This document shows, one piece after another, positions 1 through 52,774 of a stretch of DNA of 52,774 bases (the first letter of the stretch is position 1; each line of letters begins with the position of its first letter). Origin of the DNA: a virus (lineage: Duplodnaviria; Caudoviricetes); IMG/VR virus record IMGVR_UViG_3300012942_000057, positions 1 to 52,774 of that record; one strand, 5' to 3'. The position numbers were made by a program, and so were the translations under genes. Under the pieces are notes generated by a model. The model saw only the letters and a list, made by a program, of their open reading frames with translations. It was not told where the DNA came from and did no database searches.

Positions 1-18
1 ACGGCTTCGTCGTACATC

Positions 19-216
19 TCAAGCTCCTTCCAAGAGCCGAAACGGGCTGATCCGGTCCAGCCAGTCCGGCCAAATCAATTCTAGCTTCATGAACTCTCCG
101 CCGCGCAGCAGCCACAACACGGGCGCGGCCACGAACATCACGGGGCCGAACCACAGCAGATAGACCGCCACCGAGAACGGCACGAGGTACAGGGCGAACA
201 GCATGCGTCTAAGCAT
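19..216 (-). CDS. small membrane protein, hypothetical
   Basis: ATG at 216 abuts the upstream stop; hydrophobic stretch LFALYLVPFSVAVYLLWFGPVMFVAAPVLWLL. Confidence 0.6.
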   Translation of the reverse strand: MLRRMLFALYLVPFSVAVYLLWFGPVMFVAAPVLWLLRGGEFMKLELIWPDWLDRISPFRLLEGA

Positions 217-389
217 CACGCTTCCTCCAATATGGCGAAATAGTATTGCGCCGCCCAACTGCCGTCTTTCTCGTCAGCCGCTTGCTGGCACTCCTTGGCG
301 CTGCGCATGGCCACGCCGCTCTCGACGACTCTCAACTCCGTGTTGTCCTCGGGTCCGGAGCGGAGGACGCTGTAAGTCAGTTTGCTCAC
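216..389 (-). CDS. hypothetical early protein
   Basis: GTG start overlaps the upstream TGA (GTGA) and follows GGAGG. Confidence 0.55.
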   Translation of the reverse strand: MSKLTYSVLRSGPEDNTELRVVESGVAMRSAKECQQAADEKDGSWAAQYYFAILEEA

Positions 390-610
390 CGCGACCTCCA
401 CTTTCTGATAAGGGCGTCGGCCCTTTTCTTGGAAGAGTCTATCTCCAACAAGACGTGGCCAGAACCAGTGCTGAACCCGGCGCAGGGAACTGCGACGCCC
501 AGCTCGCTGGCGGCCTTGTTGAAATTTTCGAGCAGCAAGGACTCTTCCTCCGTGTCCGCCGTTATCTTGATGCTGAATCCGTCTTCCTCGAACTCCGCCC
601 TCATTGCCAT
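386..610 (-). CDS. hypothetical early protein
   Basis: ORF packed within the leftward operon; plausible protein composition. Confidence 0.6.
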   Translation of the reverse strand: MAMRAEFEEDGFSIKITADTEEESLLLENFNKAASELGVAVPCAGFSTGSGHVLLEIDSSKKRADALIRKWRSR

Positions 611-636
611 AGTTTGCGCGCCCCTTCAGCGCGTAG

Positions 637-996
637 CTAAATTATACCCTTGGCTGATTTCAGCTCGTAGGCCACAGGCGTGCGTGACGCCAGCATCCTA
701 CGCATCATCTCTTGATGCGCGAAGGCGTGATCAGCGATCACGCACAGTATTTGATAATTAGCCGTATCATACGAGAGGTCAGCGTCGACGAACATATTGC
801 GGTATTCTCGCGCTAACTGCGCCAATATCTCCTCGTACGTTGGCCAAAGTATTGGATATACATTCACGCTCAAGATTGCTTCAAGTGGAATTGACGCGCT
901 GTACTCACGTGGCAGCGCGTCGGCCAGCAATTCTGGCGCGACGACGGACGCTCCGGCCAGCAAGGCGACGTTCTTGAACAAGTTCCTGCGGTTCAT
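637..996 (-). CDS. Tat-signal protein with a baseplate-J N-terminal-like segment
   Basis: MNRRNLFKNVALLAGASVVA twin-arginine motif; PTYEEIL...YQIL...RTP aligns with the N-terminus of the 39832 protein; GGAGG RBS. Confidence 0.7.
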   Translation of the reverse strand: MNRRNLFKNVALLAGASVVAPELLADALPREYSASIPLEAILSVNVYPILWPTYEEILAQLAREYRNMFVDADLSYDTANYQILCVIADHAFAHQEMMRRMLASRTPVAYELKSAKGII

Positions 997-1205
997 TTGC
1001 CGCCCTCCATGCACCGCTTCGTGCCGTCCATCACCATGCAGAGGAAGCTGGCGTTCTCAAACTCCCGCAGAACGCGCTCCCTTATGGGGTCTTCCGGCGA
1101 CGGGCAAAAGTACGTCAGCGCGGCGTTCAGCGCGTTCATCCTCTGCGCCTGCGCCTCGAGCTCCTCGCAGGCGTTCAAATACAGCGGATCAAGCATTTGG
1201 CTCAT
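993..1205 (-). CDS. hypothetical protein
   Basis: ATGA overlaps at both ends; GAGG RBS. Confidence 0.65.
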   Translation of the reverse strand: MSQMLDPLYLNACEELEAQAQRMNALNAALTYFCPSPEDPIRERVLREFENASFLCMVMDGTKRCMEGGK

Positions 1206-1399
1206 GCGATCCCCTCAAGCTCCGCGGCGAACTCCTCGCGGGTCATGACCTTGCAGCCGCCGATGACGTCGGCCATGCATTGGCAGGCCTCCTTCGACTC
1301 GCCGCGCCAGTGAATTCCGGCGTCGCTCAAGAACACCACCACATGGCTGTGGGTATCCGCCTCCACCTGCTTGACCAGCTCCGAAAGATCCGCCCTCAT
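1202..1399 (-). CDS. hypothetical protein
   Basis: ATG at 1399 overlaps the phosphoesterase stop (MRADLSELVKQ...). Confidence 0.6.
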   Translation of the reverse strand: MRADLSELVKQVEADTHSHVVVFLSDAGIHWRGESKEACQCMADVIGGCKVMTREEFAAELEGIA

Positions 1400-2061
1400 A
1401 ACGCGCCGTCCGGGTTGTTGGCACGAAAGGGCCGTCCCCACACCGCGTAGCCTGGGGTAGCGGGGCGCACTCGCATGAACTCCGCGACCTTCTCCAGCGA
1501 CACCGGGGCGAAGCCGTTCGCGTCCACCCCGACGTCCATCTGCCTCAGGCCGACGTTGGACAGCACGCCGTGGCTGTGGCCGAACAGCTGCCAGCTGCCC
1601 CGGTGGCACCCGTTCCACACCCTCCCGGCGTAGTGGTCCAGCACGACGAGCTGCTCGGCCTTCTTGGGGCGCGGCTCGCCAGCCTTCCAGGCCATGAGCT
1701 CGGAACTGGCAAAGCGCAGCTCCTTGCGCTCGTACACCGCGCCGAACAGCTGGCGCACCCCGTACTCCGGCTCCATGGCCTCCTCGTGGTTGCCGCGCAC
1801 GTACCAGTGCCGCCCGTTCAGCCGCTTCACGATGTCGATACACTGCCGCGTGGTCAGCGTGCGCCAAAACATGTCGCCGATGTGCCATACGTCGTCTCCG
1901 TCCTTGACGACGGCGTTGTGGGCCGCGATCAGCCCGTCGATCATATCCTTTTGGCTGCCGAACGGTCGCGGCGTTGCCGATGGCGTTCCCGTGACCCTGT
2001 CCGGCCAGCCCGTCCTCGCGTTCTCGTGCCCGTAGTGCTCGTCCGCCGTGAACCAGATCAT
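1396..2061 (-). CDS. calcineurin-like metallophosphoesterase
   Basis: Motifs WFTADEHYGH, HIGD, RGNHE, DHY, FGHSHG, DVGVD; true start MIWF at 2061. Confidence 0.9.
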   Translation of the reverse strand: MIWFTADEHYGHENARTGWPDRVTGTPSATPRPFGSQKDMIDGLIAAHNAVVKDGDDVWHIGDMFWRTLTTRQCIDIVKRLNGRHWYVRGNHEEAMEPEYGVRQLFGAVYERKELRFASSELMAWKAGEPRPKKAEQLVVLDHYAGRVWNGCHRGSWQLFGHSHGVLSNVGLRQMDVGVDANGFAPVSLEKVAEFMRVRPATPGYAVWGRPFRANNPDGAL

Positions 2062-2357
2062 GACTTCTCCTCTTCTTTCGACATCTTCTCCGCAGCCGCC
2101 CTGAACGCGGCCAGCGTCTTGCTTCCCTCGATGGGAAACCTGCTTACGTCCCGGACGCGCTTGAACAGGCCCGCGCCCCTGCGCTTGAACGGCCATGCGC
2201 CGAGCATGATGCCGTCGATGTTCAGCCAACCGTTGCGGTAAAGCGTGACGGCCACCTCGCCAACGGCGGCGTAAGAGAAGGCATGGTAGAGCGGGTGCGT
2301 CCATGCCGACTCCGGCAGTCGTTCCAAGACATCCAACACTTCGCTGTACAGGCTCAT
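2058..2357 (-). CDS. hypothetical protein
   Basis: AGGAGG RBS; coupled to the downstream gene. Confidence 0.7.
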   Translation of the reverse strand: MSLYSEVLDVLERLPESAWTHPLYHAFSYAAVGEVAVTLYRNGWLNIDGIMLGAWPFKRRGAGLFKRVRDVSRFPIEGSKTLAAFRAAAEKMSKEEEKS

Positions 2358-2366
2358 CGTGTCCTC

Positions 2367-2651
2367 CTAAGCTCTGCCAGAGCCCTCGTCAGGTCCATAG
2401 ACGACCGCCTCTCCGTCCTCCGGCACGTCCAGCGTAACCCGCACCTCCGCGCGTGCCATCAGCGCGGCATGCAGCGCCTTGTCCGCCGCCGACCCGGACA
2501 CGACGCGCAACGGCACGTCGCCGCTCATCGCCGCCGCGACGGGGTCCAGGTCGTGGACCACGCTCAGCCTGTAGCTGCACAGATTCAGCGTAGAGTCGTA
2601 TTCCCTGTCCCACATCCGCTCGACCACGAACGCCCTCGCCTCGATCCTCAT
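2367..2651 (-). CDS. hypothetical protein
   Basis: GGAGG RBS; operon packing. Confidence 0.65.
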   Translation of the reverse strand: MRIEARAFVVERMWDREYDSTLNLCSYRLSVVHDLDPVAAAMSGDVPLRVVSGSAADKALHAALMARAEVRVTLDVPEDGEAVVYGPDEGSGRA

Positions 2652-2797
2652 GCCGCCTCCGATACCATGCGCGTAATACCGCCGTCACACCACAACCACG
2701 TGTAGGCGGCCCCGGTCGCCCGCGCCATCCCGCAGGCCGCCAAGTGCCGCGCATTGGCGCGCTTCCTCCCGCCGTCGCGCCTCGGTGCGTATCTCAT
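2648..2797 (-). CDS. small hypothetical protein
   Basis: GAGGAGG RBS; ATGA overlaps. Confidence 0.5.
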   Translation of the reverse strand: MRYAPRRDGGRKRANARHLAACGMARATGAAYTWLWCDGGITRMVSEAA

Positions 2798-2952
2798 TGC
2801 ACCCTCCTCGCCTTCTCGGCGCTCTCCGTCAACAACTTGGCCAGCCGCTCCGCGTCGTCCGGAGTGAATAGGCACGTGGATTCCTCTATATTGGTCAGAT
2901 ACACCTGTCCGTTGCGCCACCCCACCACTAGCTCGCCCTTGCGCTGCTCCAT
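2794..2952 (-). CDS. small hypothetical protein
   Basis: GGAGG RBS; start abuts the sigma-factor stop (MEQRKGELVVGW...). Confidence 0.55.
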   Translation of the reverse strand: MEQRKGELVVGWRNGQVYLTNIEESTCLFTPDDAERLAKLLTESAEKARRVQ

Positions 2953-3557
2953 CACAACCCTCCATTGCTCATCTTCCGCGCGGTTCCGATCGTGCCAGAC
3001 CGCATCCAACGCCGCAGCTTGGCCAACTCCGCCGTCACCACTTGCGACACGCGCGACTCCGTGCACCCCACGCGCGCCGCGACCTCCCTCATGGGCAGCT
3101 CCTCGATGAAGTACAGCCGCATCACCTCGCGGTGCCTCTCTCGCCTGGTATCGTACGCGCCGAGCAACTCCCTCGTCTCCGCCCGCTCCAACATCTCATG
3201 GGGCGAAGCGAAACGCGACGGCACGTCGGACATCTTGCCGCCCCACTCGAATTCAGTCTCGGCCTCGTCGTCGAATTGGCAGACCACTTGCGCGGACCCG
3301 ATCTTCTTGCGCTCATTGCGCGACACGGCGTCCCGCGCGCGCAGCCAATCGATCATGGCCCCGCGGCAGCGCAGCGCCGCCCACGTCTCCATCTTGGCCC
3401 CTCGGTCGCCCTTGTAAGTCTGCACGGCCTTCACCAGACCAACGTAACCCTCCGAAACGAGCTCCTCGAGGTCGGCCTTGCCGCCGATGCGCCGCCACAG
3501 CCGCCAAGCGACGCCTTGAACCAAGGGCATCAGTGCCACAATCTCCGCGTCGTCCAC
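2952..3557 (-). CDS. RNA polymerase sigma-70 family factor, FliA/WhiG-like
   Basis: Region 2 (DLEELVSEGYVGLVKAV, RGAMIDWLR) and region 4 HTH (LPMREVAARVGCTESRVSQ); start could extend to 3614. Confidence 0.88.
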   Translation of the reverse strand: MDDAEIVALMPLVQGVAWRLWRRIGGKADLEELVSEGYVGLVKAVQTYKGDRGAKMETWAALRCRGAMIDWLRARDAVSRNERKKIGSAQVVCQFDDEAETEFEWGGKMSDVPSRFASPHEMLERAETRELLGAYDTRRERHREVMRLYFIEELPMREVAARVGCTESRVSQVVTAELAKLRRWMRSGTIGTARKMSNGGL

Positions 3558-3649
3558 GCCTCCCGCCTTTCCGCCGCATTTTGAACCGATGACGCCGAGC
3601 GCCGCCCTCCCCAATCATACGCCGCCGGGCCCGAACCGCCCGCCGGGCC

Positions 3650-5695
3650 CTACTGCGGCCTGGCCCCCTGCTCGAACCTCCGCTTGGGCGCCGAGGCGGC
3701 CCGGCGCTCCGCCTCGTACCCCCGGGCGGCCTCGGCGGACGACGCGGAAGCCCACCGCGCCGGGTTCCGCACCGCCCACAGCGCGGTCCTCACCCCGCCG
3801 ACGACGGCGTTGTTCCTGCCCCGGTCCGCCTTCGCCACGCCGGCGGCGCCGAGGGCGCGCGCCAGGCCGACCGAGCGCACCTTGTCCCTGCCGTCGGGGT
3901 CGTAGGCGCGGAGCAGGTCCTGTGTGCGCCAGAGCTCCCACGGCTGCCTGTCGGGCGGCAGCAGCGAGTCAGGGTCGGCGCGGAGCTGCACCGCCCAGTC
4001 TTCGACGTCGCCCCGTCCCGCGGCGGCCATCTCGGCGCGCGCCGACGTGCGCGGCGCCGGGCCCTGCGGGTCGAAGTCGCCCATGTCGAACCCGCGGAGG
4101 AGGTGCCAGAACAGCGCGGGCCCGCCGCCGCCTCGCCTCAGCCAGTCGTCGCACTCCTTGTACGCGGCGCGCGGCATGGGGTCGACGTCCACGTGGTGCA
4201 CGAACACGCGGCGGTCGTGGGCCTCGAGGTAGACCGCGTCCTCGTGGTTGGAGGTCATCCAATAGTTGATGCGGTCCCTCACCTGGAACGTCTTGCGGTT
4301 CTTGATGTTCATCCTGAGCGTCGTCCGCGTGACCAGGTCCTTGATGGCGTCGGCCAGCTCCCGCTTGGAGCCGACCGCGAGCTCGTCGGCCACGATGAAC
4401 TGCTTGCACTCCGCCCATTCGGTGAACGACGAGCCCAGCTGGTCCGCGTTCACCGTGCCGTAGTTCTTGCCGTAGACGTACGCCATGGTCTCGCCGAGGA
4501 ACGTCTTGCCGGTGCCCTGCTGCCGGCCCCACAGCAGCACGGCCGTCGCCAGCTTCGCCCCGGGGTTCCGCACCGGCCAGGCCAGCCAGCGCCGCAGCCA
4601 CAGGCGCTCCTCCTCGGTCGCCCCGCCCGTCACGTGCCCGAACAACCGCTCCCACGGGCCGACGTCGCCCTCCCGCGGCGCGCAGCCCCACCCGAGCGGC
4701 GCCCAGGTGTTGTACGCCCCGTCGGCCGTGAAGAATCCGGCCGCGCCGGGGTCGTACTCCAGCCTCGGCACCTCGGTCCGCAGCGGCCAAGCGAGCCACT
4801 CCTTGGCGGTGAACCTGCGGACCATGCGCCCCGGCCTGTCCTCGTCCGCGGCCATGAACGACCTCGGCTTGTACAGGACGTCGGCGAACGCGGAGGCGGA
4901 GAACACGTGCCCGCTGGCCAGCTCCACCACCTCGCCCGTGGCCCTGACCATGGCCGCCTCGGAGTTCATCCGGTGCATGTCCACCCCGGGCCCCAGCTCC
5001 TCGGCCTGGGCGACGAGCGCGCCGAACGCCTCCGGCCCCTCTTGGACGAGGAAGTCGTCGAGCCCGCGCTTCGACCCGTCCGGGGCGGGCTCGAGCCGGA
5101 CCCACCTCACGGCGGCGCCGCGACGGGCGAGGGTGGAGGCCAGCTGGCCGGCCGCGAGCCGCACCATGGGGTTGTCCGCCAGGTCGGAGTCGAAGCAGAC
5201 GTACGCCGGGCGCCCCTCCCACCTGAACGCCTCGAGCGCCGGTATCAGCTCTTGCAGCTCGCGCGCGCTGCGCCAGTTGTAGACGCCGCCGAGCCCGACC
5301 GTGGGGAAGCCCTCCGCGCAGCCCTTGGCCGCCTTCAGCTCGCCCTCGGTCAGCACCACCGGCCAGCCGGGGTCGGCCTGGATCGCGGCCCACGACGCGC
5401 CGTCCCGGAGCGTCGGCGGCAGGTACGCGCCGCACGGCGTCCCGGCCGGCTGGCCGTAGCGCCTCGGCTTGTCCGGCGCGGCCATGGACCCCCAGCCCCT
5501 GCTCGGGCGGTCCTGCAGGTAGCGGAAGCGGAAGAAGCCGTCAGGGTCGGAGCCGCCGTCCGCGGCGAAGTACGGGATCTTGAACCCCGCCCAGTCGGGC
5601 GACACCCCGAGCCCGTGGCCCTCCTCGAACGGCTCCAGCCGCAGCTTTTTCACCGCCTTCGCGTCCAGCCCGCTCGCCCGGGCCCTCTCCATCAT
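3650..5695 (-). CDS. primase-helicase (DUF3854/TOPRIM-like primase + SF3/D5-like NTPase)
   Basis: LTEGELKA, GLGGVYNW, CFDSD, GLDDFL in the primase part; Walker A GRQQGTGKT, Walker B IVADE, motif C MTSN. Confidence 0.88.
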   Translation of the reverse strand: MMERARASGLDAKAVKKLRLEPFEEGHGLGVSPDWAGFKIPYFAADGGSDPDGFFRFRYLQDRPSRGWGSMAAPDKPRRYGQPAGTPCGAYLPPTLRDGASWAAIQADPGWPVVLTEGELKAAKGCAEGFPTVGLGGVYNWRSARELQELIPALEAFRWEGRPAYVCFDSDLADNPMVRLAAGQLASTLARRGAAVRWVRLEPAPDGSKRGLDDFLVQEGPEAFGALVAQAEELGPGVDMHRMNSEAAMVRATGEVVELASGHVFSASAFADVLYKPRSFMAADEDRPGRMVRRFTAKEWLAWPLRTEVPRLEYDPGAAGFFTADGAYNTWAPLGWGCAPREGDVGPWERLFGHVTGGATEEERLWLRRWLAWPVRNPGAKLATAVLLWGRQQGTGKTFLGETMAYVYGKNYGTVNADQLGSSFTEWAECKQFIVADELAVGSKRELADAIKDLVTRTTLRMNIKNRKTFQVRDRINYWMTSNHEDAVYLEAHDRRVFVHHVDVDPMPRAAYKECDDWLRRGGGGPALFWHLLRGFDMGDFDPQGPAPRTSARAEMAAAGRGDVEDWAVQLRADPDSLLPPDRQPWELWRTQDLLRAYDPDGRDKVRSVGLARALGAAGVAKADRGRNNAVVGGVRTALWAVRNPARWASASSAEAARGYEAERRAASAPKRRFEQGARPQ

Positions 5696-6209
5696 TCCGT
5701 CCCGCGCCGTCCTTGGTGCCTTCAAGTTCGATCCTCTTCCGCAGCTCTGCAAGCCCCATGTTGATGAGCGCGTCGGCGACGCGGCTCGCGTTCGGCGGCA
5801 TCGGGCCCCTGGACGGGGGCGGGTGCGCGTCCTTCGGCGGCCTCCCCAGCCTCGGGCCGCCGAGGTTGTTCGACGACAAGCGCCGCGCCTCCGCCAGCGC
5901 GGCGTTGGCGGCGTCCATGTCGAGGCGCTCCAGCGCCCTGGTCAGCAGGCGCCACGCCGGCTCCGGCGGCAGGGCGTGGCTTCCGATGCGCCGCGGCCCC
6001 GGCGTCTTGGCCGGAAGGCCGGCGAAGGTGTAGAGCGCCGCGTAGTCGGCCTTGGAGAGGCCCTTGTCGTCGCGGTCGGGCGCGGGGTCCTCGCGCGCGC
6101 TATCTATGGACGGCGGGAACAAAACTCCCAGCCCGGGGTATCCAAGGCCAGCGTCGACGATGGCGTCCAAGGCGGCCGAGGTCGCGGAATCGAGCGTAAA
6201 GGCGCGCAT
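5541..6209 (-). CDS. hypothetical protein, possible split ribbon-helix-helix regulator
   Basis: First gene left of the AT-rich region; RAFTLDSATSAALDAIV and NASRVADALINMGL resemble RHH elements; long overlap with the primase. Confidence 0.5.
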   Translation of the reverse strand: MRAFTLDSATSAALDAIVDAGLGYPGLGVLFPPSIDSAREDPAPDRDDKGLSKADYAALYTFAGLPAKTPGPRRIGSHALPPEPAWRLLTRALERLDMDAANAALAEARRLSSNNLGGPRLGRPPKDAHPPPSRGPMPPNASRVADALINMGLAELRKRIELEGTKDGAGRNDGEGPGERAGREGGEKAAAGAVRGGPRARGVARLGGVQDPVLRRGRRLRP

Positions 6210-6303
6210 GAAGCGTCCCAAATGAAACCTCCAAAACATATAGCGATAGGAGATAATCATATCGCAATGAGGCCTCCGAAACGCCCCGAAGAGCGTGAAA
6301 AGC

Positions 6304-16860: not shown

Positions 16861-19302
16861 ATGCCGAAACCACGCAAGCGCAAAAACGCCAACGCCTTCG
16901 AGCAGCTCCTGGGCGTCCACGGCACCACCAGCGCGTTCGCCCAGGACGTGTTCACCAACGCCGCGGCGCGCACTGGCTATGGCACGCCATCGCTGGGGCA
17001 GGGCAGTGAGTACAGCCTCGTACGCTTGAGCTTCGATTATTGGCAGCTCATCACGCTGTTCCGCAACCACTGGATCAGCCGCCGCATCGTGGAGGTGCCG
17101 GCGCAGGACATGGTCAAGGCGTGGCCCAAGATGACCAGCGACGTGGAGCCCAAGGACCTCACGCGCATCGATCGCGCCCTGCGCAAGACCAATACCAAGA
17201 ACAACGTGCTCACCGGCCTGACATGGGGGCGCCTGTTCGGCGGCGCCGGCGGCCTCATCGTCATCGACGGCCAGGAGAACGAGCTCGACCAGCCGCTGGA
17301 CCTCGACTCCATCAAGATAGGCGCATACAAGGGAATCATCGCGTTCGACCGCTGGGCCGGGATCTCGCCTTCCGGAGACGTGTGCACGGACATCAACCGC
17401 CCGCTCGACTTCAACAAGCCAGAGATGTACGACTGCCGTGTCGCAGGAGGCGCGTCGTTCCAGGTCCACTCGTCTAGGCTGCTTCGGTTCCTCGGGCCGA
17501 CCGTACCCACTCCCGAAGTGGAGGCCCAGTCCTACTGGGGCATCTCGGTGCTGGAGCCGACGTACGAGTCCATCACGCGGCTCGACAACATGTACTTCAA
17601 CCTGCTCAACCTGTCGTTCCGCGCCAACCTCATCGGAATGAAGTTCCCCGAGCTGGCGCAGCTGCTCTCCGGACTGGGTTCGTCGCAGATGGCGACGCAG
17701 AAGTTCGAGCAGCGCATGTCATCGCTCAACCACCTCATGTCCAACCAGTCGCTCATCCCGCTGCCGGCGGACGGCTCCATCGAGCAGACGCAGTACAGCT
17801 TCGGCGGCATGAGCGACGTGCTGCAGCTCTTCCAGCTCGACCTGTCCGGCGCGGCGCAGATACCCATCACCCGCTTGTTCGGCCGCACGTACAATGGGCT
17901 TGGACAGGCGGGCGACGGCGACGAGCGCATCTACGAGGAGAAGATCTCCACCGACCAGTCGACCTACCTGTTGCCGCAGCTCGAGAAGCTCTACCCGGTG
18001 GTCTGTATGAGCGAGCTGGGCGAGGTGCCGGACGACCTCGACCTCGCCTGCCCCTCCATCCGCGTGCTGTCGGAGCAAGAGAAGTCGGACCTGGCCAAGA
18101 GCGTCGCCGACACCACCACCGTGTACCTCAACGGCGGCATCATGTCGCCGCGCAGGGTTGCCATGGAGGTCAAGCGTAATAGCGACGTTACAGGCATCGG
18201 CGCCACATTGGACGACGAGTACATACAAAAGCTCAGCGACGACGTCCAATCCGAGGGGGAGCTCGGCGAGGGCCTGTTCGGCGGGGAGGGCGGCGGTCTC
18301 AACGAGGCGTCGTCGCCGGCCAAGGCCATCAAGGGGGAGAACGAGAAGGAGAAGGAGAAGCAGGACGAGCCGGGCAAGGAAGACCCCAAGAAGGGCCTGG
18401 CCGAGAAGGCCGGCAAGGCCCAGGACGCCGCCCCGGCCATGGACGCGCTGCCGTCCGGGCTCGCCGTGGGGGAGTCGGTGCTCGTCGGGGGCCGGATGCT
18501 CGCCGTGAGGGCCATCGGGCCCGCCGTGGAGGACCTGGATGGCCGGGAGGCCGTTCCGGTGAGCTTCGACGACGGCTCCGTGGTGGCGTACGCGCCAGAC
18601 CGCAATAGGGCGGGCGATTCCTACACCGTGCGCGACTCGCTGAAGAGCCTTCTGCGCCGGCATATGACCGGCAAGGAGGGCAAGTCCAAGCGTGAGTTCT
18701 TCGACGAATGCGTTGAGTTCCTCTCCACCAGTGTCGCGAAAAGCAGCGCGGCGTATGCGGAGGTGGAACGCATGGACTCAGCCCTAACTCTCGGCCGGTT
18801 GTGCGAAAACGTGCGCACCGAGCTGAAGAAGGGACGTGCCACCGACGAGGACGGCGCCTCCAGCGTCACCCGCCGCGCCGCGGAGCTCATGGAGTACCAT
18901 GCGCTGCCGGTTCGGATCGAGAGCAGGCAGGGCGACGTCCGCGCCGGGACCACGCCGGACGGCCGGTCGTGGCGGACCGTCATGCCAGCCGATTACGGCT
19001 TCATTGACATGGGAATCAACGGCAGCGACGGAGATTCAATCGACTGCTATGTCGGCACGTCGCCGGAATCGAACAACGTCTACGTCGTCGACCAGTATGA
19101 CCTGGACGGCAAGCAGTTCGACGAGCACAAGGTGATGCTTGGCTATCATACGCGGGAGACCGCGGTGGAGGACTACATGCTGGGCCACCACCTGTCCGAC
19201 AAGACGTTCGCCGCCGTCACCCCGTTCACGATGCCGGTGTTCAGGAAGTGGCTGAGGACGCACGACATGACCCTGCCGTGCGACGCGGAAGTGGGCCGCT
19301 GA
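16861..19302 (+). CDS. portal protein (DUF1073-type) fused to a C-terminal inorganic-pyrophosphatase-like domain
   Basis: WISRRIVEVPAQDM, WGRLFGG, VHSSRLLRF, WGISVL, IPITRLFG; C-terminal DYGFI...DGDSIDCYVG...DEHKVMLGY. Confidence 0.9.
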   Translation: MPKPRKRKNANAFEQLLGVHGTTSAFAQDVFTNAAARTGYGTPSLGQGSEYSLVRLSFDYWQLITLFRNHWISRRIVEVPAQDMVKAWPKMTSDVEPKDLTRIDRALRKTNTKNNVLTGLTWGRLFGGAGGLIVIDGQENELDQPLDLDSIKIGAYKGIIAFDRWAGISPSGDVCTDINRPLDFNKPEMYDCRVAGGASFQVHSSRLLRFLGPTVPTPEVEAQSYWGISVLEPTYESITRLDNMYFNLLNLSFRANLIGMKFPELAQLLSGLGSSQMATQKFEQRMSSLNHLMSNQSLIPLPADGSIEQTQYSFGGMSDVLQLFQLDLSGAAQIPITRLFGRTYNGLGQAGDGDERIYEEKISTDQSTYLLPQLEKLYPVVCMSELGEVPDDLDLACPSIRVLSEQEKSDLAKSVADTTTVYLNGGIMSPRRVAMEVKRNSDVTGIGATLDDEYIQKLSDDVQSEGELGEGLFGGEGGGLNEASSPAKAIKGENEKEKEKQDEPGKEDPKKGLAEKAGKAQDAAPAMDALPSGLAVGESVLVGGRMLAVRAIGPAVEDLDGREAVPVSFDDGSVVAYAPDRNRAGDSYTVRDSLKSLLRRHMTGKEGKSKREFFDECVEFLSTSVAKSSAAYAEVERMDSALTLGRLCENVRTELKKGRATDEDGASSVTRRAAELMEYHALPVRIESRQGDVRAGTTPDGRSWRTVMPADYGFIDMGINGSDGDSIDCYVGTSPESNNVYVVDQYDLDGKQFDEHKVMLGYHTRETAVEDYMLGHHLSDKTFAAVTPFTMPVFRKWLRTHDMTLPCDAEVGR

Positions 19303-34746: not shown

Positions 34747-36393
34747 GTGTCTACAAATTACATCGACGAATATCTGATCAAGCTGGGCGCGAGCGTTGAC
34801 AACAGCGGCATGAACCGCTTTCACCAAGCACTGCGCGAGGCCACCGTCGTGGCTGACAGCAGCGCGGCTTCCATAGCCGGGGCGTTCTTCAAGGCGCAGA
34901 CCGAAGTAGTCAGCGGCTTCGCAGCCATCGGTACAGCCGCGCTGGGCATGGTGGATAAGGTCGCCATGGCCGACCAAAGCTACCGTCTGTTCGCTCTGCA
35001 CATGTACATGAGCAAGGAGAACGCGCGCGGCTTGAAGGTGGCCATGGACGCGCTGGATGCCTCTTTGGAGGACATGACTTGGGACAAGGAGCTGCGCGAG
35101 CGTACCCATCAACTTTTGGTGGACCAGCGTGTCATGGCTCCGAACGGCGATTTCGACGCGCAGATGCGCAAGATACGCGACATCCGCTTTGAATTTACGC
35201 GTTTGGAGGTGGAGTCGCAGTACCTCGCCATGCACGTTGTCACCGACTTCATGAATGCGTTGGGCTTCGGTCCGGACGAGCTGCTTAACAAGTTGCGCGG
35301 TATCAATGACTGGATAACTCACAACCTGCCGCGCATATCTGGTGCGATAGTTCACGATTTTCTTCCGGTGTGGAAGGACGTGAAGGAGGTGTTCTTTGCT
35401 ACCGCTGAAGCGGCCGAAGCTGCTGGGTTGGCGTTCACCAACGTCGTCGGACTGCTCACCGACGACCACGCCATTGAGGGCACCACGTTCAACCTAGAGA
35501 AGTTTGCCGGAGCAGTTGAGCACATCGTACACGGATTTGCGGTGTTCGCCGAGGCGGTGGCCAATGTCGAGGGGATGTTGGCGCACCTCGTAAGCGCGCT
35601 GGCTATGGTGGCCAGCGGAAACTTTTCTGGTGCGGCGGCAGAGCTTGGTGCAGCCTTCCATGACGTAACGGCCAAGGCTGTTGGCGGCGTCATTGGAGGC
35701 GTGGCGGGTGGTGTGCTCGGCAGTTTTGGCGGCCCGCTGGGTACTGCCGCTGGCGCCATGGGAGGCACCGCGCTTGGCGCCAACATCATGGACAAGGCGT
35801 TCGGCGGTAGCGGAACCGCCAGTGCGGGAAGCTCTGATGTAGCGGCATTGGTGCAGAAGTACGCCACACAATACGGCGTAGATCCGCGTCTAGCAGCCGC
35901 GCTGGCTACGCAAGAAAGCGGCATGCGGCAGTTCGGACCCAACGGCTCTGTGGTTACGTCGCGCACAGGTGCCATGGGGACTATGCAACTGACGCGCGCC
36001 ACCGCTTCCGCCTTGGGCGTTGACCGCTCCAACGCGGAGCAGAACGTGCAGGGCGGCATGGCGTTGTTTGCACATCTCTTGCAACGCTACCATGGAGACG
36101 TACCCACGGCCATAGCTGCTTACCACGAAGGCGAATCCAAGATGAGCGCCATACTCGCAGGCAGGGCAACTTTGTCTTCGGAGGCGCGTGGCGAGGTGGC
36201 TAGCGTGATGCGCAGGTCTGGCGCGCACGGTGACGTGCAGGTCGGCTCGATCATCATCCACATCGACAAGCCTGGCGCCGTCAATGCAGATGTTGGTAAG
36301 GCGGTGGTGGCGCACTTGCAGGACGCGCAGAACAAGCGCATCCAGCGCAATTTGGCAGAATTTCAAGACACCAGTTGGAGCTACGGAGGGTAG
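34747..36393 (+). CDS. tape measure protein with C-terminal lytic transglycosylase (SLT)
   Basis: IDEYLIKLG start, helical Ala-rich body, QESG, GAMGTMQL, AAYHEG. Confidence 0.9.
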   Translation: MSTNYIDEYLIKLGASVDNSGMNRFHQALREATVVADSSAASIAGAFFKAQTEVVSGFAAIGTAALGMVDKVAMADQSYRLFALHMYMSKENARGLKVAMDALDASLEDMTWDKELRERTHQLLVDQRVMAPNGDFDAQMRKIRDIRFEFTRLEVESQYLAMHVVTDFMNALGFGPDELLNKLRGINDWITHNLPRISGAIVHDFLPVWKDVKEVFFATAEAAEAAGLAFTNVVGLLTDDHAIEGTTFNLEKFAGAVEHIVHGFAVFAEAVANVEGMLAHLVSALAMVASGNFSGAAAELGAAFHDVTAKAVGGVIGGVAGGVLGSFGGPLGTAAGAMGGTALGANIMDKAFGGSGTASAGSSDVAALVQKYATQYGVDPRLAAALATQESGMRQFGPNGSVVTSRTGAMGTMQLTRATASALGVDRSNAEQNVQGGMALFAHLLQRYHGDVPTAIAAYHEGESKMSAILAGRATLSSEARGEVASVMRRSGAHGDVQVGSIIIHIDKPGAVNADVGKAVVAHLQDAQNKRIQRNLAEFQDTSWSYGG

Positions 36394-37316: not shown

Positions 37317-37652
37317 ATGGCGCAGCAAATCGTACCTCTGGCGCAGGCGCCAAACCAGACGTTCACAACACAGTTGACAGTGGACGGATCCCCACTCACG
37401 CTCAACCTAACGCTGGGCTACTCGGTGATGTCCGGCTGGTGGCAACTCAGCATCGCGGACGCGCAAAACAACATGCTCGTCTCTTCCTTGCCTCTCATCA
37501 CCGGCTACTACCCAGCCGCCAACATGCTGGCGCAGTACGGCTACTTGCAGATAGGAAGCGCCTACCTGCTCAATACCGGCGTAAGCACCAATGACTACCC
37601 CGGCCCAAATGATTTGGCTAACTTCTCGCTGCTTTGGAGCGACACGGTATGA
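37317..37652 (+). CDS. small baseplate protein
   Basis: IVPL...PNQTF, PLITG, LAQYGYL.IG. Confidence 0.75.
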   Translation: MAQQIVPLAQAPNQTFTTQLTVDGSPLTLNLTLGYSVMSGWWQLSIADAQNNMLVSSLPLITGYYPAANMLAQYGYLQIGSAYLLNTGVSTNDYPGPNDLANFSLLWSDTV

Positions 37653-38698
37653 GCGCTTCCACGATACCGTTGTTCGGACAGGCTTGGGAGCTCACCGTGC
37701 AATACCAGACCAGTGCTGGTACGCAGACGGCGGTGATTTCGGCTAACAAATGGGAGCCGGAGGCGCTGCGCATAACGTTCGACGTGGTGCAGTCCATGCT
37801 GCCTTCTCCTTGGTGGTACGCCGACATCGCCGTTTACAATCTAGACACGCCCACCACGCAGAACATCTTATTGAACGCTACGTGGGTGACTTTGAAAGCT
37901 GGGTTCCAGACTGGTCCAACGCTTTCATCCATCATATGGGACGGTCCTATTTTGCAGGTGCTGTTCGACCGCGAGCAGGTCGTAGACGCGCGCGTTACGC
38001 TGCACTGCGTGGCCAATCCGCTCGTCATGGACGACATCATCGGGTTCTCCATGGGACCGTACGCGTCGCAGGCGCAGCTGGTTGCGAAGATGGCCGCGGA
38101 AACCGGCTTGCCGGGAATTTCTCAGGCCAACGGCACGCTCAGTAGCTACGCATCGCAGGCGCTGAGCGCCAAGCAGTATCCGCGCGGCAACACCGTGTTC
38201 GGAAAGACGGGCAAATACCTGCACCAAATTGCGGACGATCAATTCATGACCACATGGCGCGATGGCAGCAAGGCGTACATATCGCAAGTTTCCAATGGAG
38301 ACGTCAACCCTACTCCGAATTACGTTTATAGTCCGCCGTTTCCACCCAATAGCACTCCTGCCGGACTGCCGGCAGGCACTACGCAGAGCATAACTGGCAC
38401 GCCGCGACAGACTCCGTTCGGTGTCATCTTCACTGTGCTGCTGGATCCGCGTCTAAGCGTGCAGCTTCCCCCGCTCGTCGTGCAGCTCGTACGCACGCTC
38501 ATCACGCAAATCGCCGTGCAGCCGGGGCAGACAGCCGCTTCGCCTTACAGCGCCAACCTTAGTTTCTTCGTCGCGCAGGTGCGTCACACTGGTGACTCGC
38601 GCGGAAACGATTGGTACACCGAAGTAACCGGCTATGGCACGACGTACGCCTCCAATCTTTTGGACGGCGTATTCGCGGCGTCTTCGTCAGGAGCATAG
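37649..38698 (+). CDS. baseplate hub protein
   Basis: LRITFDV, IAVYNL, LKAGF, HTGDSRGNDWY. Confidence 0.8.
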   Translation: MSASTIPLFGQAWELTVQYQTSAGTQTAVISANKWEPEALRITFDVVQSMLPSPWWYADIAVYNLDTPTTQNILLNATWVTLKAGFQTGPTLSSIIWDGPILQVLFDREQVVDARVTLHCVANPLVMDDIIGFSMGPYASQAQLVAKMAAETGLPGISQANGTLSSYASQALSAKQYPRGNTVFGKTGKYLHQIADDQFMTTWRDGSKAYISQVSNGDVNPTPNYVYSPPFPPNSTPAGLPAGTTQSITGTPRQTPFGVIFTVLLDPRLSVQLPPLVVQLVRTLITQIAVQPGQTAASPYSANLSFFVAQVRHTGDSRGNDWYTEVTGYGTTYASNLLDGVFAASSSGA

Positions 38699-38703
38699 AA
38701 TAC

Positions 38704-39432
38704 ATGGCAACATTCGCGCCGGGTCTAACACCATCTCAGATAAACTACGCTGAGCCTTCGCAGTGGCGGCAAATCGTGAAGCAAGCGCTGGATGATACCC
38801 GCTGTGCTACGCCAGCCTTCCTTGCGGAGGACTTGAACGCATCACAGCAGACCGTTACCGTGCAGATAGCCATACAGGAGCGCGTGCGACCGGCAAATGG
38901 AGCCGCGCAGTGGTGGGACGTGCCACCGATCGTGAACGTGCCCATCGTGGTGCCGCGCGGCGGAGGCTACAGCATAACGTTGCCACTCAAGAAGGGCGAC
39001 CAAGGATTGCTCGTGTTTTGCGATACGTGCTTCGACAACTGGTGGGTTAACGGTCAGCAGAACGCGCCACCGGCCTACAATGTTTCATCTCCGTCCGGCT
39101 CGCAGCGTCAGCTAGAGGTGCGTCGCCACCACGTCCATGACTGCGGCTTCTTGCCCGGCATGTGGAGCCAGAACAACCTGCTCAGCGACTACGCCACAGA
39201 TTCCTTGCAAATACGCTCCGACGACGGCGCGACGAGCATAGACGTGTCGGCCTCCGGCGTCCGCGTAAAGGGAACGTCCATTACGGCTGCGAACGGCGGA
39301 ACGGCACTGGCGCTCGTCAACGACAATTTCTATCAATGGTTTGTTGACGTTTACATGCCTTCCGTGCAGTACAAGACGACGCAACCGCCAGTACCGACAA
39401 ATCCAGAAACAACCATACTGAAAGGTCAGTGA
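38704..39432 (+). CDS. baseplate spike (Gp138-like)
   Basis: NVPIVVPRGGG..ITLPLKKGDQGLLVF.D, RRHHVHD. Confidence 0.85.
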   Translation: MATFAPGLTPSQINYAEPSQWRQIVKQALDDTRCATPAFLAEDLNASQQTVTVQIAIQERVRPANGAAQWWDVPPIVNVPIVVPRGGGYSITLPLKKGDQGLLVFCDTCFDNWWVNGQQNAPPAYNVSSPSGSQRQLEVRRHHVHDCGFLPGMWSQNNLLSDYATDSLQIRSDDGATSIDVSASGVRVKGTSITAANGGTALALVNDNFYQWFVDVYMPSVQYKTTQPPVPTNPETTILKGQ

Positions 39433-39827
39433 TGTCGACCGCGCCTACGATTCAATATCTTCGACTAGACGACCAAAACGATCCGACGTTCGACCCGACC
39501 GCGAACTTGACAGACGCGGAAGCCGTCAACCAGGCCATTCTCACGCGGTTGCGCCTGTTTCTCGGTGAATGGTGGGAGGACGCCAACCTTGGCTTGCCGG
39601 TATTCCAGTCCATACTGGGCCAGCTCGCCTCGTCGCAGGGCATCGCGGCTATGACCTTAGCCGTGCAGCAGAACGTGGAAGACGCTCCGTACGTCACGAG
39701 CGTCAGTCCGTTGAACGTCAACTTCAGCGACGGAATTCTAACTATCACCGGAACCGCTTACACGCAGTTCGGTCCGGTAGCTATCAATACCGCGCCCGCA
39801 CTAAGCGTGGCCGGGATAGGTACTTAA
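39432..39827 (+). CDS. baseplate wedge subunit (gp25/W-like)
   Basis: AVNQAILTRLRLFLGEWW.D...GLP. Confidence 0.8.
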   Translation: MSTAPTIQYLRLDDQNDPTFDPTANLTDAEAVNQAILTRLRLFLGEWWEDANLGLPVFQSILGQLASSQGIAAMTLAVQQNVEDAPYVTSVSPLNVNFSDGILTITGTAYTQFGPVAINTAPALSVAGIGT

Positions 39828-39831
39828 GTAT

Positions 39832-41058
39832 ATGAGCACACCAGCGTATTTTCCACCCTCTATCGGACCGTCCGGTCTGCAGGTGCCCTCTTACCAGGCC
39901 ATCATGGCCGACAATTTGCAGTCGTTCCTGAACATATACGGCGCGAACCAGTATGTGGCGCCAGACTCAGCCATCTACCAGCTGCTGAGCGCGCTCTCCA
40001 TAAAGCAGGCCGACGTAAATTTGGCGTTGCAATTGGCATACAACCAGTCATCGCCGCAAACCGCCGTAGGCGCTGGTTTGGACCGGCAGGTGAAAATGAA
40101 CGGGCTGGCGCGCGAGCCTTTCACGTTCTCCACTGCACTACTTACTGTAACGGGCGTGGTAGGCACCGTAATTGTCAACGGGTTTGCGCAGGACCAGCAA
40201 GGCAACCTTTGGTCGCTTCCAAGCTCGGTTACAATTCCTGGCGGCGGCTCTATCAGTGTGATATCCACTTGCACCACGCCCGGAGCGGTCACTGCAGAGC
40301 CTGGAACCATCAACATCGTCAACACGCCTACTGCCGGCTGGCAGTCCGTGACCAACGCCACAGCCGCTACAGCCGGTGAGCCGATAGAACCAGATTCGCA
40401 GCTGCGCGCGCGGCAAGCGGTATCGGTGGCGCTACCGTCGGTAACGCCTTTGGCGTCTACAATAGCCGCCGTATTGGCGGCCAAGGGCGTTATCAGGGTG
40501 GCACCGGGTTATCCTACGCCAGGCGGAGGCCCTGGGTCTTCCATTGAGAATCCGACCGGTGCCGTAGACAGCTGGGGGAATCCGCCGCATTCTATTTCCA
40601 TCGTGGCCGAGTGCACCAACACGCAAACGGTCGCCGAGGCGATTTACACCAAGAAAACAATAGGCTGCTTCACCAACGGTACTACAACGGTTCCTGTGGT
40701 CGACTCGACTACGGGGGTTACGGAGGACATCAGCTTCTACCAGCCAACCAACGTGCCGATCTACATCAGTGTTACACTTGTCGGGTACGGCAACACGGTA
40801 ACTTCCGCCACCATCGCGGCTGTTCAAACTGCCTTGGTCAATTATCTCAATGGACTCGCCATCGGCGAGACAGTGTCGGTGGGAGCGCTCTACTTCGAGG
40901 TGATGAAGGTGAACTCCAACATAAACGCTCCGACGTTCGGCACTTCTTCGCTGTTCGTGGGAACGGCTCCTTCGCCTGCCGGTACGGTGGATGTTCCGAT
41001 GCCAAATTTTTACTACAGCGCGCAAGGCATAGCGGCCAACGTGGTGGTGCTGACTTGA
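39832..41058 (+). CDS. baseplate J/gp47-like wedge protein
   Basis: P.TAVG.GLD, GW.SVTN, E.DSQLRAR, PPHSI. Confidence 0.88.
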   Translation: MSTPAYFPPSIGPSGLQVPSYQAIMADNLQSFLNIYGANQYVAPDSAIYQLLSALSIKQADVNLALQLAYNQSSPQTAVGAGLDRQVKMNGLAREPFTFSTALLTVTGVVGTVIVNGFAQDQQGNLWSLPSSVTIPGGGSISVISTCTTPGAVTAEPGTINIVNTPTAGWQSVTNATAATAGEPIEPDSQLRARQAVSVALPSVTPLASTIAAVLAAKGVIRVAPGYPTPGGGPGSSIENPTGAVDSWGNPPHSISIVAECTNTQTVAEAIYTKKTIGCFTNGTTTVPVVDSTTGVTEDISFYQPTNVPIYISVTLVGYGNTVTSATIAAVQTALVNYLNGLAIGETVSVGALYFEVMKVNSNINAPTFGTSSLFVGTAPSPAGTVDVPMPNFYYSAQGIAANVVVLT

Positions 41059-41693
41059 GTGCTAACCCGTACTACGGAGTACAAGGCTACGGCACGGGTG
41101 GTTACGGCAACGAGCCGATTGAGAACCTGCCGTTTGGGTACTATCTCTCCATACTAACGCACCAGTATGCGCCGCCGTCCTCGCCCAAGCTCAACGCCCT
41201 GCTGCAAGTATTGCTGCGAAAATTCGACGATGTTTCGCAGGTTTTGGTCAAGATGGACACCGCGCTGGATCTAGATGTGGCGGAAGGCGCGCAGTTAGAC
41301 ATGCTTGGCGCGACCGTAGGAGCGAGCAGGACTGTCGAATTTCAGCCGAGCGGCGGCGTAAGCCCGGTTCTGGACGATTCCACCTACCGTATCTACATTA
41401 AGGCCAAGATAGCTCAAAATCAATGGGACGGCACGATCAGCAGTCTGTACGGGATTTGGCAGGCGCTGTTTCCCGGCGGCTCCATTATCATCATTGACAA
41501 CCAAAACATGACGGCTGACATAACGCTCAAAGGTACGTTCACTTCCATAATCCAAGACCTTATCACCAACGGCTACATTGTACCAAGGCCGGAGGGGGTT
41601 CTCTATACGTATCTGTTCGGCACACTGCCGTTCTTCGGATTTGGCACGTCGCCCGGATTCATAGCCGGATTCGGCGAAGGGCATTGGGTGTAA
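41055..41693 (+). CDS. baseplate wedge protein (DUF2612-type)
   Basis: LDLDVAEGAQLD.LG..VG.SR, QNQWDGT, DNQNMT, PRPEGV; TTG start. Confidence 0.85.
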   Translation: MSANPYYGVQGYGTGGYGNEPIENLPFGYYLSILTHQYAPPSSPKLNALLQVLLRKFDDVSQVLVKMDTALDLDVAEGAQLDMLGATVGASRTVEFQPSGGVSPVLDDSTYRIYIKAKIAQNQWDGTISSLYGIWQALFPGGSIIIIDNQNMTADITLKGTFTSIIQDLITNGYIVPRPEGVLYTYLFGTLPFFGFGTSPGFIAGFGEGHWV

Positions 41694-52200: not shown

Positions 52201-52774
52201 TGCGGGGGTTCGATGGTCTATCCGGGCGCGGGCGTCGCGGTGTCGACGGGAAGCGGATGGGGGACGTCGATTGCGGCGGCGAATATACCGCTGCTGAACG
52301 CAAGCAATACGTTTACTGGGACGGCGAATACCTTTAATGGGATTTTGAATATAAATTACGGCTCTTCCCTTGTGATGTTGTCAACCCCCGCAACCTCGGC
52401 ATCCCCTCTTGTCGATAGCGACATCTTCAACATTCATGGAAGCTATTGGGATGGAATCTCGGCACAGGATACCTTCTGGACAATTCAGAACGTAATGTCC
52501 AATTCGTCCAATCCGACCAGTACGCTTACATTCTCTCCACCGACCTCTAATCCGCCAGGAGGATTCTCTGTAGCCGTTCCAGCGTTGCAGATCACTAAAA
52601 ATCTCGTCAACAATGTCGGTATGCAGATGGCCAGCGGGGCGGGCTGCGCGATCACGGCTGGCGCCGTCGGCAACACTTGCACAGGCTCGATCACGCTGCC
52701 CGTGGCGGAACCGGATACGTCGTACTCGATCACCGGATGCTCGGTGGTGAACCCTTCCGACGGCGCTGTGACGG
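49222..52774 (+). CDS. large fibre/receptor-binding-like protein with signal peptide, truncated by the window end
   Basis: Absent from the ORF track because no stop falls in the window; MKKILALLCFIVAVTAPCVG-QNQVNPASQVRWP; shares its N-terminal module and a repeat with 43090; ends TLPVAEPDTSYSI. Confidence 0.8.
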   Translation, partial: MKKILALLCFIVAVTAPCVGQNQVNPASQVRWPAVTGVVDPAPPTWACAPANYGQPYTNTASGDNFVCAAAGWVKVSSSGEGTVIASPQFRMFLQPSAGTQATAQGAAIGQNGVAPMMQGQINSDLYATGSGGNGVSNALASSDCTVVGCLLNRPQTSTDTENIWSLLNSASEYTHATDSKYGAFSNYFWNAGLNQSGVVERDANPNVCFWKDQLQQLQSNMNCRPTYSTYSSFGRYGQGSIPVSEAEDSIYGMFGRGIGQLHGGRFYAYSVGDKALQEQYMYYRGGTIQGSDEGDEGVYIGMVEDTPPSGVVTTGGTGTTDITVNFTASAGHQADGHILMDTQSPETSGLIVSQTVGSANLPNTATTSDTHAVNTGYAVTTASCGTYTARNNPTVSTCAITGLVGAFTAGPACVADWKNPEQIRITATASGTITAGFTLVHPAGTAIEQGGLCGDYVVMGNGSSTPLAAPITAVTSYAIVGSPTATTFDYVVVYKSGQDGKLQIRVPSLPTETIRGTITRNSNVVSITNPGGNTAFAYNGYVAPSAAAITVSGATPSDLNGTVTGTVVTPSTMTWNQTGANETGSGGTISVAGLNNYFAYCGAETVGDPGVLLSSTSQTAQTGELYLEPNHCSWAANDSVVQPNFYSQSLTAQRTILSGFTPDIQGGGSMAPSLLEVSGAAYSGQTLNYVQDLDLPAQYQGYGGTFVPHKYFNSTDIYDNLFNLRYAPANGKTLFTIGCDPGGCSSNNYDWTVFQLTGTSGSNYFDFSPANNYFYVANSGLLSGTYMGAQSAIGVSGQVSHGFVLPGTAAPYTFYFTAVGQSNTTAVLGTGTPGDSSGTLGMKTLDSANIVAGAPAPANFTVFNGGTSGSTTYTYACTAVTANGESTAGTGTTATGNATLSATNYNSIACAGVPGAQSLNIYRTSGGATQGKIGSAPNGNTNNNAVVQFQDTGLAGDGTSPPGANTTGRFTGYGSTANFTIGGSPICTVASGCGGSMVYPGAGVAVSTGSGWGTSIAAANIPLLNASNTFTGTANTFNGILNINYGSSLVMLSTPATSASPLVDSDIFNIHGSYWDGISAQDTFWTIQNVMSNSSNPTSTLTFSPPTSNPPGGFSVAVPALQITKNLVNNVGMQMASGAGCAITAGAVGNTCTGSITLPVAEPDTSYSITGCSVVNPSDGAVT

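Follow-up and report, generated by a model that had tools for sequence, protein, structure and literature searches.

A small phage gene joining a Tat-type leader to a divergent derivative of the baseplate J N-terminal hairpin

Results

Gene content of the locus

The DNA analysed here (the window), from an uncultured phage of soil, was a stretch of 52,774 nucleotides, being the whole of a linear IMG/VR record (IMGVR_UViG_3300012942_000057) that is rated 52% complete. A minus-strand block at positions 1–6260 contained small open reading frames (ORFs), a calcineurin-like phosphoesterase, a sigma-70-family factor and, at its head, a primase/helicase with DUF3854 and DUF5906 domains (3650–5752, minus strand; identified through Pfam); the portal, capsid, sheath, tape measure and baseplate genes were on the plus strand. 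Within the block, the ORF at 637–996 on the minus strand (P0001, hereafter mini-J) encoded 119 amino acids and a stop codon, with its ATG at 994–996 and its stop at 637–639. A ribosome-binding site, GGAGG, was evident in the sequence at 1004–1008 on the same strand, 7 nt before the ATG, and the ATG overlapped the stop codon of an upstream 70-codon ORF (993–1205) in the arrangement ATGA. A GTG at 1014 would add six residues but lacks such a ribosome-binding site, and the ATG was preferred to it as the start codon.

Three regions could be delimited in the product: a Tat-type leader (residues 1–27; 916–996, minus strand), evident from the sequence and from an alignment of 14 members; a variable linker (residues 28–48; 853–915, minus strand), which was modelled at pLDDT 62–67 and was gapped and variable in alignments; and a J-derived helical hairpin (residues 49–105; 682–852, minus strand), defined by AlphaFold and hhalign, with helices at 54–68 and 79–105. 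Mini-J is an intact gene, and its product couples a Tat-type leader to a divergent version of the J N-terminal hairpin. The RRNLFK motif, the hydrophobic segment and the peptide quoted in the preliminary description of this DNA were all found in the translation of 637–996. That description had also called the gene locally AT-richer, which was borne out: its G-C content was 52.8%, against 60.9% for the window and 57–73% for its neighbours, and its third-position G-C (GC3) was 0.63, against 0.76–0.97 in the neighbours.

The baseplate J gene itself (P0002; 39832–41058, plus strand) encoded 408 amino acids and matched both Pfam PF04865 (1.2e-13) and phrog_6 (4.1e-54). It was followed by a gene for a gpI/gp48-like wedge partner of J (41055–41693, plus strand; phrog_587, 2.1e-47; phrog_1160, 4.3e-9), which starts with TTG, overlaps the J stop codon and served as a negative control below. 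Mini-J was situated outside this tail module, in which J lies between W-like (39429–39827) and I-like genes and a hub gene was assigned at 37634–38698; mini-J was on the other strand and 38.8 kb away, in agreement with the separation of about 39 kb given earlier, and its companions were the primase, sigma factor and phosphoesterase. Its place among 'early genes' is inferred from gene content, the primase/helicase, sigma factor and phosphoesterase being on the same strand.

Other features of the window were recorded in passing. The sigma-70-family factor (2952–3614, minus strand) possessed regions 2 and 4 (Pfam, 4.6e-13 and 2.2e-9), and was not found in the 20-kb and 14-kb loci that were compared from two complete relatives, G001 and G002 respectively. 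The primase/helicase was a compositional outlier, with 73.3% G-C and a GC3 of 0.97, where the window as a whole has 60.9% G-C. The ORF at 19–258 (minus strand), three genes downstream of mini-J, encoded 79 amino acids from a TTG start and matched no family; within the product, an internal Met15 precedes Leu-Arg-Arg and an extended hydrophobic segment, and a small membrane protein is the probable identity. The portal protein (16861–19302, plus strand) was an unusual fusion of Phage_portal_3 (2.6e-85) with a C-terminal inorganic pyrophosphatase domain (InPase, residues 677–798, 5.9e-34), and the tape-measure-like protein (34747–36393, plus strand) included a lytic transglycosylase-type domain at residues ~330–493 (PHROG, 1e-16). 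The J protein of the window, at 408 amino acids, was shorter than that of most close relatives (about 470); the J open frame of G001 spanned 477 amino acids and was matched twice by the C-terminal part of the query, which suggests an extra C-terminal module in the J proteins of relatives. Finally, an ORF of more than 1183 codons (49222–52773, plus strand) ran off the end of the record and was preceded by ORFs of 918 and 887 codons. The ORF at 43090–45846, the only one of the large ORFs scanned, matched phrog_7032 (tail fiber protein, 1.1e-9). The record ends within a set of very large, probable tail-fibre genes.

The twin-arginine leader

The translation of mini-J begins MNRRNLFKN-VALLAGASVVAP-ELLADALP. 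The consensus of Tat signals is S/T-R-R-x-F-L-K. In P0001, paired arginines lie near the N-terminus and an h-region of moderate hydrophobicity comes next. The leader consisted of the twin-arginine motif, a short, Gly/Ala-rich h-region (VALLAGASVVA), a helix-breaking proline (Pro21) and the sequence Ala25-Asp26-Ala27. When the 14 leader-bearing members were aligned, N2, R3, R4 and P21 were invariant (14/14); RRx was followed by two hydrophobic residues in every member and then by K or R in 12 of them, while the h-region varied in sequence and kept its hydrophobicity. Ala25-Asp26-Ala27 is a possible signal-peptidase site as predicted by the -3/-1 rule; this AxA motif was absent from several members (e.g., P0006, P0010 and P0015) and was not conserved across the family. 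The c-region, P-x-LL-x-x-ALP, was conserved beyond what is normal for signal peptides, and so a reader other than Tat, or additional to it, may recognise the leader.

Comparison with existing signal models produced matches to some members. Pfam TAT_signal (PF10518) matched 4 of the 17 rows of the family alignment (best E = 0.0035) and NCBIfam TIGR01409 matched one of 17 (best E = 0.0037), P0001 not being among them in either case. A search of the protein database with the leader alone returned two family members and nothing else. In a metagenome scan, the sole look-alike was the leader of a Tat-type aldo/keto reductase, to which residues 1–31 of mini-J were 55% identical. ESM Atlas returned feature matches below 0.9 only, to proteins with Tat leaders, and its model of mini-J was poor (pLDDT 0.47). 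The leader was also found on a different cargo: P0017 (122 amino acids) began with a mini-J-type leader, MNRRQLFRN..LAGA..V.P.IL.EALP, on an unrelated body that matched neither J, nor PHROGs, nor any ORF in the window.

Family members and their anatomy

Four close relatives of mini-J were present in the protein database. A profile search of 1.84 billion representatives identified 16 proteins at E = 0.001 or better, comprising ten leader-bearing mini-proteins, two proteins that share the leader (P0017 and P0018), two J fragments and two long repeat proteins. In all, 14 intact leader-bearing members were assembled, which were 31–66% identical to P0001 and had no internal stop codons. Given these 14 members, the invariant N2-R3-R4 and P21, and a copy in a complete sister phage, the fusion was conserved as a family and was not a one-off, decaying fragment, the outcome that would have refuted the preliminary description.

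The core of the hairpin was conserved in the motifs PxY..ILA and D[ST].DYQ.LS. The alignment of the family to J was co-linear through these motifs and SP.TA.G..LD, and extended in five members to E[TS]DEELR.R; between the last two, approximately 90 residues corresponding to the J wing domain were missing. Thus, as far as these alignments indicate, the longer relatives have kept both J helices that follow the hairpin (TAxGxxLD and ETDEELRxR), and the wing domain has been cleanly excised from between them. The model of P0010 accordingly had additional helices at 108–122 and 130–138, and its top 12 structural rows were baseplates. The subgroup to which P0001 belongs lacked the C-terminal helices that other members keep.

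Some members departed from this plan. P0013, P0015, P0016 and P0019 had three conserved cysteines, one in GCPG and two in a C-x3-C motif of the second helix; J has none of the three, and a disulfide or metal site is conceivable. P0018 (89 amino acids) consisted of the leader and the SPVTATG..LD and ETDAELRAR helices, the hairpin being lost, and matched phrog_6 (7e-4). The two long repeat proteins, P0012 (938 amino acids) and P0014 (2093 amino acids), were matched at profile positions 60–108 in 9 and 6 stretches respectively, the repeat in P0012 reading like '..DVEIDSDTHAHSLLSGV..'; each match is composed of many weak stretches and may be a repeat artefact, and both were treated as unrelated to mini-J.

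Sequence evidence for homology to baseplate J

The preliminary description had aligned mini-J to the J protein of this phage with a single gap. BLASTP reproduced the alignment, with 10 of 38 residues identical and 22.3 bits (E = 0.004 for one pairwise comparison). At the scale of the window (295 ORFs of at least 60 amino acids) the E value was 0.49, and J was only the second-best foreign match; the best was a gappy match to a DUF2213 protein (E = 0.34). Taken alone, therefore, the pairwise comparison of mini-J and J by BLASTP was not above chance at window scale. When residues 30–119 of mini-J were shuffled, none of 1000 permutations scored as high against J alone as the real sequence.

Stronger evidence came from a profile that was built from the 14 leader-bearing proteins and contained no J sequence. 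It matched residues 17–88 of J (39880–40095, plus strand), which is the segment copied in mini-J according to hhalign (probability 96.9%, E = 1.7e-10, 71 columns); against the J of the window alone the values were 96.1% and 3.7e-9. Profile similarity to baseplate J, the lack of which would have refuted the preliminary description, was therefore present. In the controls, the same profile scored 0.3% against the I-like protein, 0.2% against the portal and 0.1% against the DUF2213 protein; mini-J therefore derives, by this evidence, from J and not from I. The portal and the DUF2213 protein were likewise rejected as sources of the mini-J body on these values, the latter although it was the best raw BLAST match. 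When the profile was applied to five related phage records, the N-terminus of J was matched in all five (E = 6.5e-12 to 3.6e-9).

Direct matches bridged the two families. Family member P0016 was 36% identical to the window's J over 87 amino acids (E = 4e-16), P0001 was 35% identical to the J fragment P0020 over 57 amino acids (E = 1e-8), and the profile reached two J N-terminal fragments among the 1.84 billion representatives (5.0e-4 and 6.8e-4). Six of the seven members that were scanned matched phrog_6 (baseplate wedge subunit), four of them below 1e-3. P0001 did not match PF04865, which J matches at 1.2e-13; the Pfam Baseplate_J region corresponds to J residues 83–350 and is absent from mini-J, which ends at residue 119. 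Because profile, bridging-sequence and fold evidence coincide, the homology of the predicted mini-J hairpin to the J N-terminus is considered secure.

Predicted fold

AlphaFold2, supplied with the family alignment, predicted helices at residues 54–68 and 79–105, with pLDDT of 94–98 across residues 51–100; the leader and linker were modelled at pLDDT 62–71. Foldseek produced no match against the PDB at E = 0.001 or better; its weak matches, when realigned by VIA, were baseplate or injection-system chains at ranks 1–17, and involved chain residues ~1–80 throughout. In an exhaustive alignment to 48,161 PDB chains, which is independent of Foldseek, the first 7 rows were all contractile baseplate entries, as were 15 of the first 20, always matched at the N-terminus of the chain. 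Individual comparisons included Pam3 (Z = 7.8, rmsd 1.2 Å, 56 residues aligned), XM1 (Z = 7.8, 1.3 Å, 57 residues), Mu (Z = 7.6, 3.9 Å, 66 residues), pyocin R2 (Z = 7.2, 1.5 Å, 60 residues) and T4 gp6 (Z = 5.9, 2.4 Å, 59 residues). The mini-J hairpin superimposed on residues ~10–67 of J/gp6-type chains with rmsd 1.2–1.5 Å over 56–60 residues (Z = 7.2–7.8). Z-scores of 5–8 are in a range that is common for helical models, and for this reason the fold only corroborates the sequence result.

The corresponding part of J has a known structural setting. According to the account of diffocin (PMC10996793), two J-type chains and one I-type chain build the core bundle and trifurcation unit with their N-terminal regions, the wing domain sits between core bundle and trifurcation unit, and the sheath initiator docks on the core bundle. 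Complex prediction with residues 45–119 of mini-J gave scores of 0.01 with J and 0.00 with the I-like protein; no controls were folded, and these scores are no verdict either way.

Distribution among related phages

The primase/helicase was 46% identical to its counterpart in G001 and 43% identical to that in G002, and was the sole gene of the block conserved in both of these complete relatives. In G001 (100,317 bp) a copy of mini-J, P0010, occurred 1.25 kb downstream of the primase, and the J gene, 76% identical to that of the window (G000), was on the strand opposite P0010. The mini-J proteins of G000 and G001 were 38% identical, where their J proteins were 76% identical, and, primase aside, the two phages had almost no small flanking genes in common. 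G002 (101 kb), with a J protein about 72% identical, contained neither mini-J nor the leader. Overall, mini-J was present in 2 of the 7 related records examined, 5 of which are fragments, and the lineage of the window had one leader-bearing gene per genome. J residues 1–100 were 70–93% identical among relatives. A search for this J lineage yielded 205 proteins, of which many are encoded on contigs of about 100 kb. A tyrosine integrase was found in neither of the two complete relatives, while the control search was positive in 14 of 14 cases.

Contigs from four DNA runs also indicated a mosaic block, and speak to the presence of pieces only. An 8.3-kb contig of run X2 matched the window at 904–1001; in it, 1001 was connected to 2354, and 2796 to 3593, by sequence different from that of the window. 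Two scans of viral contigs with mini-J family queries produced no match. Of two queries used in genome scans, one returned nothing and the other returned residues 1–50 only, i.e., the leader part, on a Bacteroidales contig. The closest J proteins from cultured phages (39–41% identity) belonged to phages of Burkholderia, Yersinia, Citrobacter, Salmonella and E. coli, which are proteobacterial, and a Gram-negative host is therefore likely. Mini-J is thus a patchily distributed accessory gene. It belongs to a mosaic group of small genes that follows the primase in contractile-tailed phages of ~100 kb lacking a tyrosine integrase.

Discussion

Interpretation of mini-J

The preferred reading, which is held at a little below even confidence, is that mini-J is a Tat-targeted mimic of the J docking surface with a role in conflict, either between phages or between phage and host. 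Mini-J would be made together with the replication and take-over genes; the leader would deliver it, already folded, to the Tat translocase, through which it would cross the inner membrane or be placed on it, on the assumption that the host has a Tat system. Mini-J would then either be cleaved after Ala27 or remain tethered to the membrane, where the hairpin would present a stand-alone protein-binding surface imitating the docking face of J. Its role would lie in conflict and not in virion assembly, and the candidates are the exclusion of other phages, or the trapping or elimination of a host factor able to recognise the J-type fold. The preliminary description had proposed a decoy for a baseplate-sensing defence, a superinfection-exclusion factor or a poison for competing assembly; its view of a repurposed J fragment behind a Tat-type leader is supported, and its three roles stand as candidates. 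Several observations support parts of this reading. The GGAGG site, the ATGA coupling and an intact homologue at the matching relative position in G001 indicate a real gene; the rate at which mini-J has diverged between G000 and G001 relative to J, and its absence from G002, are consistent with evolution of the conflict type; and the block has turned over to the extent that only the primase is common to all three phages. In virions, the wedge encloses the J core bundle, which remains extracellular, such that a periplasmic copy has no obvious partner from an incoming phage. Since that bundle is never in the periplasm, a simple role in periplasmic exclusion is non-obvious.

The most substantial alternative, although it too is judged unlikely, is that the mimic acts in the cytoplasm, prior to export or in place of it, where the hairpin would compete with full-length J for its partners and so poison the wedge assembly of a co-infecting phage, or occupy a host immune sensor of the J N-terminus. 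The piece that has been copied is exactly the docking module of J, the neighbouring genes are of early type such that mini-J would precede the late proteins, and its rapid evolution and patchy distribution resemble those of arms-race genes. However, a twin-arginine leader that is invariant in 14 of 14 members would be costly baggage in the cytoplasm, and a hairpin that enters the bundle should poison the phage's own J also, given how similar the first 100 residues of J are among relatives. Nor did searches reveal a system of the required kind: PADLOC matched none of ten proteins (P0001, P0010, P0016 and seven neighbours) at E values up to 0.1, and no J-sensing defence system was found in the literature searched.

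It is rather improbable that mini-J is a carrier or plug coupled to Tat, in which the hairpin would bind a cytoplasmic partner and the leader drag the complex to or through the translocase, or mini-J would simply occupy the translocase. The Tat pathway exports folded proteins and complexes, and a lone hairpin taken from a multi-chain bundle might be expected to seek partner helices; moreover, the occurrence of the leader on the unrelated body of P0017 suggests a modular design of 'leader plus bait'. Against such a design, each genome in the lineage of the window has a single leader-bearing gene.

The same modularity can be extended into a general strategy, which is offered speculatively and at low probability. 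In this strategy, of which mini-J would be one example, a portable Tat leader would be placed on bait-sized segments taken from late proteins of the same phage; these baits would capture whatever recognises the fold, be it a host immune sensor or the assembly partner of a rival, and Tat would sequester or expel the captives before the late proteins appear. Compatible with this are the copying of a pure docking module, the greater constraint on the leader, including its c-region, than on the cargo, the attachment of the leader to P0017 and the location of mini-J in an accessory block with fast turnover.

A functionless remnant, i.e., a partial duplication of J that came to lie behind a captured leader and is now decaying, is very improbable. 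Mini-J does have the lowest G-C and GC3 in its neighbourhood, its subgroup has lost the C-terminal helices, and a complete relative (G002) lacks it. Yet decay is difficult to reconcile with 14 intact members that, at 31–66% identity to P0001, retain the paired arginines without exception, a conserved hairpin core and frames uninterrupted by stops, with a strong ribosome-binding site and translational coupling, or with the retention of mini-J in G001 while every flanking small gene differs. Last, a chance or convergent likeness of two amphipathic helices, without descent from J, would accommodate the weak pairwise alignment at window scale (E = 0.49) and fold Z-scores below 8, but is scarcely credible and is refuted as far as sequence statistics go by the profile matches, the direct matches of P0016 and P0020, the phrog_6 matches and an alignment that stays co-linear across four consecutive J motifs and lacks only the wing between them.

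Significance

Genes for structural proteins are generally regarded as invariable virion components; in mini-J, the docking module of a baseplate protein has been cut out precisely and kept, with an export-type leader, as a separate and fast-evolving accessory. If mini-J is exported, this would be a rare use by a phage of the host's export of folded proteins for a virion-derived domain; if the Tat-targeted mimicry preferred above is correct, it points to a host or phage partner that reads the N-terminus of J. Independently of function, the family offers a minimal, well-folding wedge core-bundle hairpin, as predicted, for structural and binding studies. No description of a Tat leader on a baseplate fragment was found in the literature (open-access papers and bioRxiv), and the terms 'twin-arginine' and 'baseplate J' occurred together, in the text that these sources made available, only in an Acinetobacter pan-genome study.

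Comparison with known systems

Among known small phage proteins, T4 Imm, an early superinfection-exclusion protein located in the envelope, offers an analogy. [quoted passage not shown] Imm is not known to derive from a virion protein or to possess a Tat leader, and the two have no relation in sequence or fold. Imm is reported to bind the tape measure protein (bioRxiv 10.64898/2026.03.06.709160). An exclusion activity of mini-J is pure conjecture.

With bacterial Tat signals (PF10518, TIGR01409), mini-J shares the arrangement RR-x-hydrophobic-hydrophobic-K/R, the short Gly/Ala-rich h-region and the helix-breaking proline. It differs from Tat substrates in that its cargo is a cofactor-less phage fragment of 90 residues, its export is a prediction and its c-region is unusually conserved.

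Within the baseplate, the gpI class (gpI, Mu gp48, T4 gp7 and Tri1) supplies the third chain, which adds N-terminal helices to the core bundle as set out for diffocin (PMC10996793); the mini-J profile was unmatched by the I-like member of this class in the window (hhalign, 0.3%). It is with the J class (P2 gpJ, Mu gp47, T4 gp6 and pyocin/diffocin Tri2; PF04865, phrog_6) that mini-J shares the N-terminal core-bundle hairpin, and its longer relatives also keep the two J helices that follow. Unlike these proteins, mini-J has no wing, trifurcation or dimerisation domains, measuring 119 amino acids against 408; it carries a Tat-type leader, is encoded on the other strand and outside the tail module, and evolves about twice as fast. 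As read from its sequence, mini-J is a known domain in a new architecture, one that stands alone and is tagged for export.
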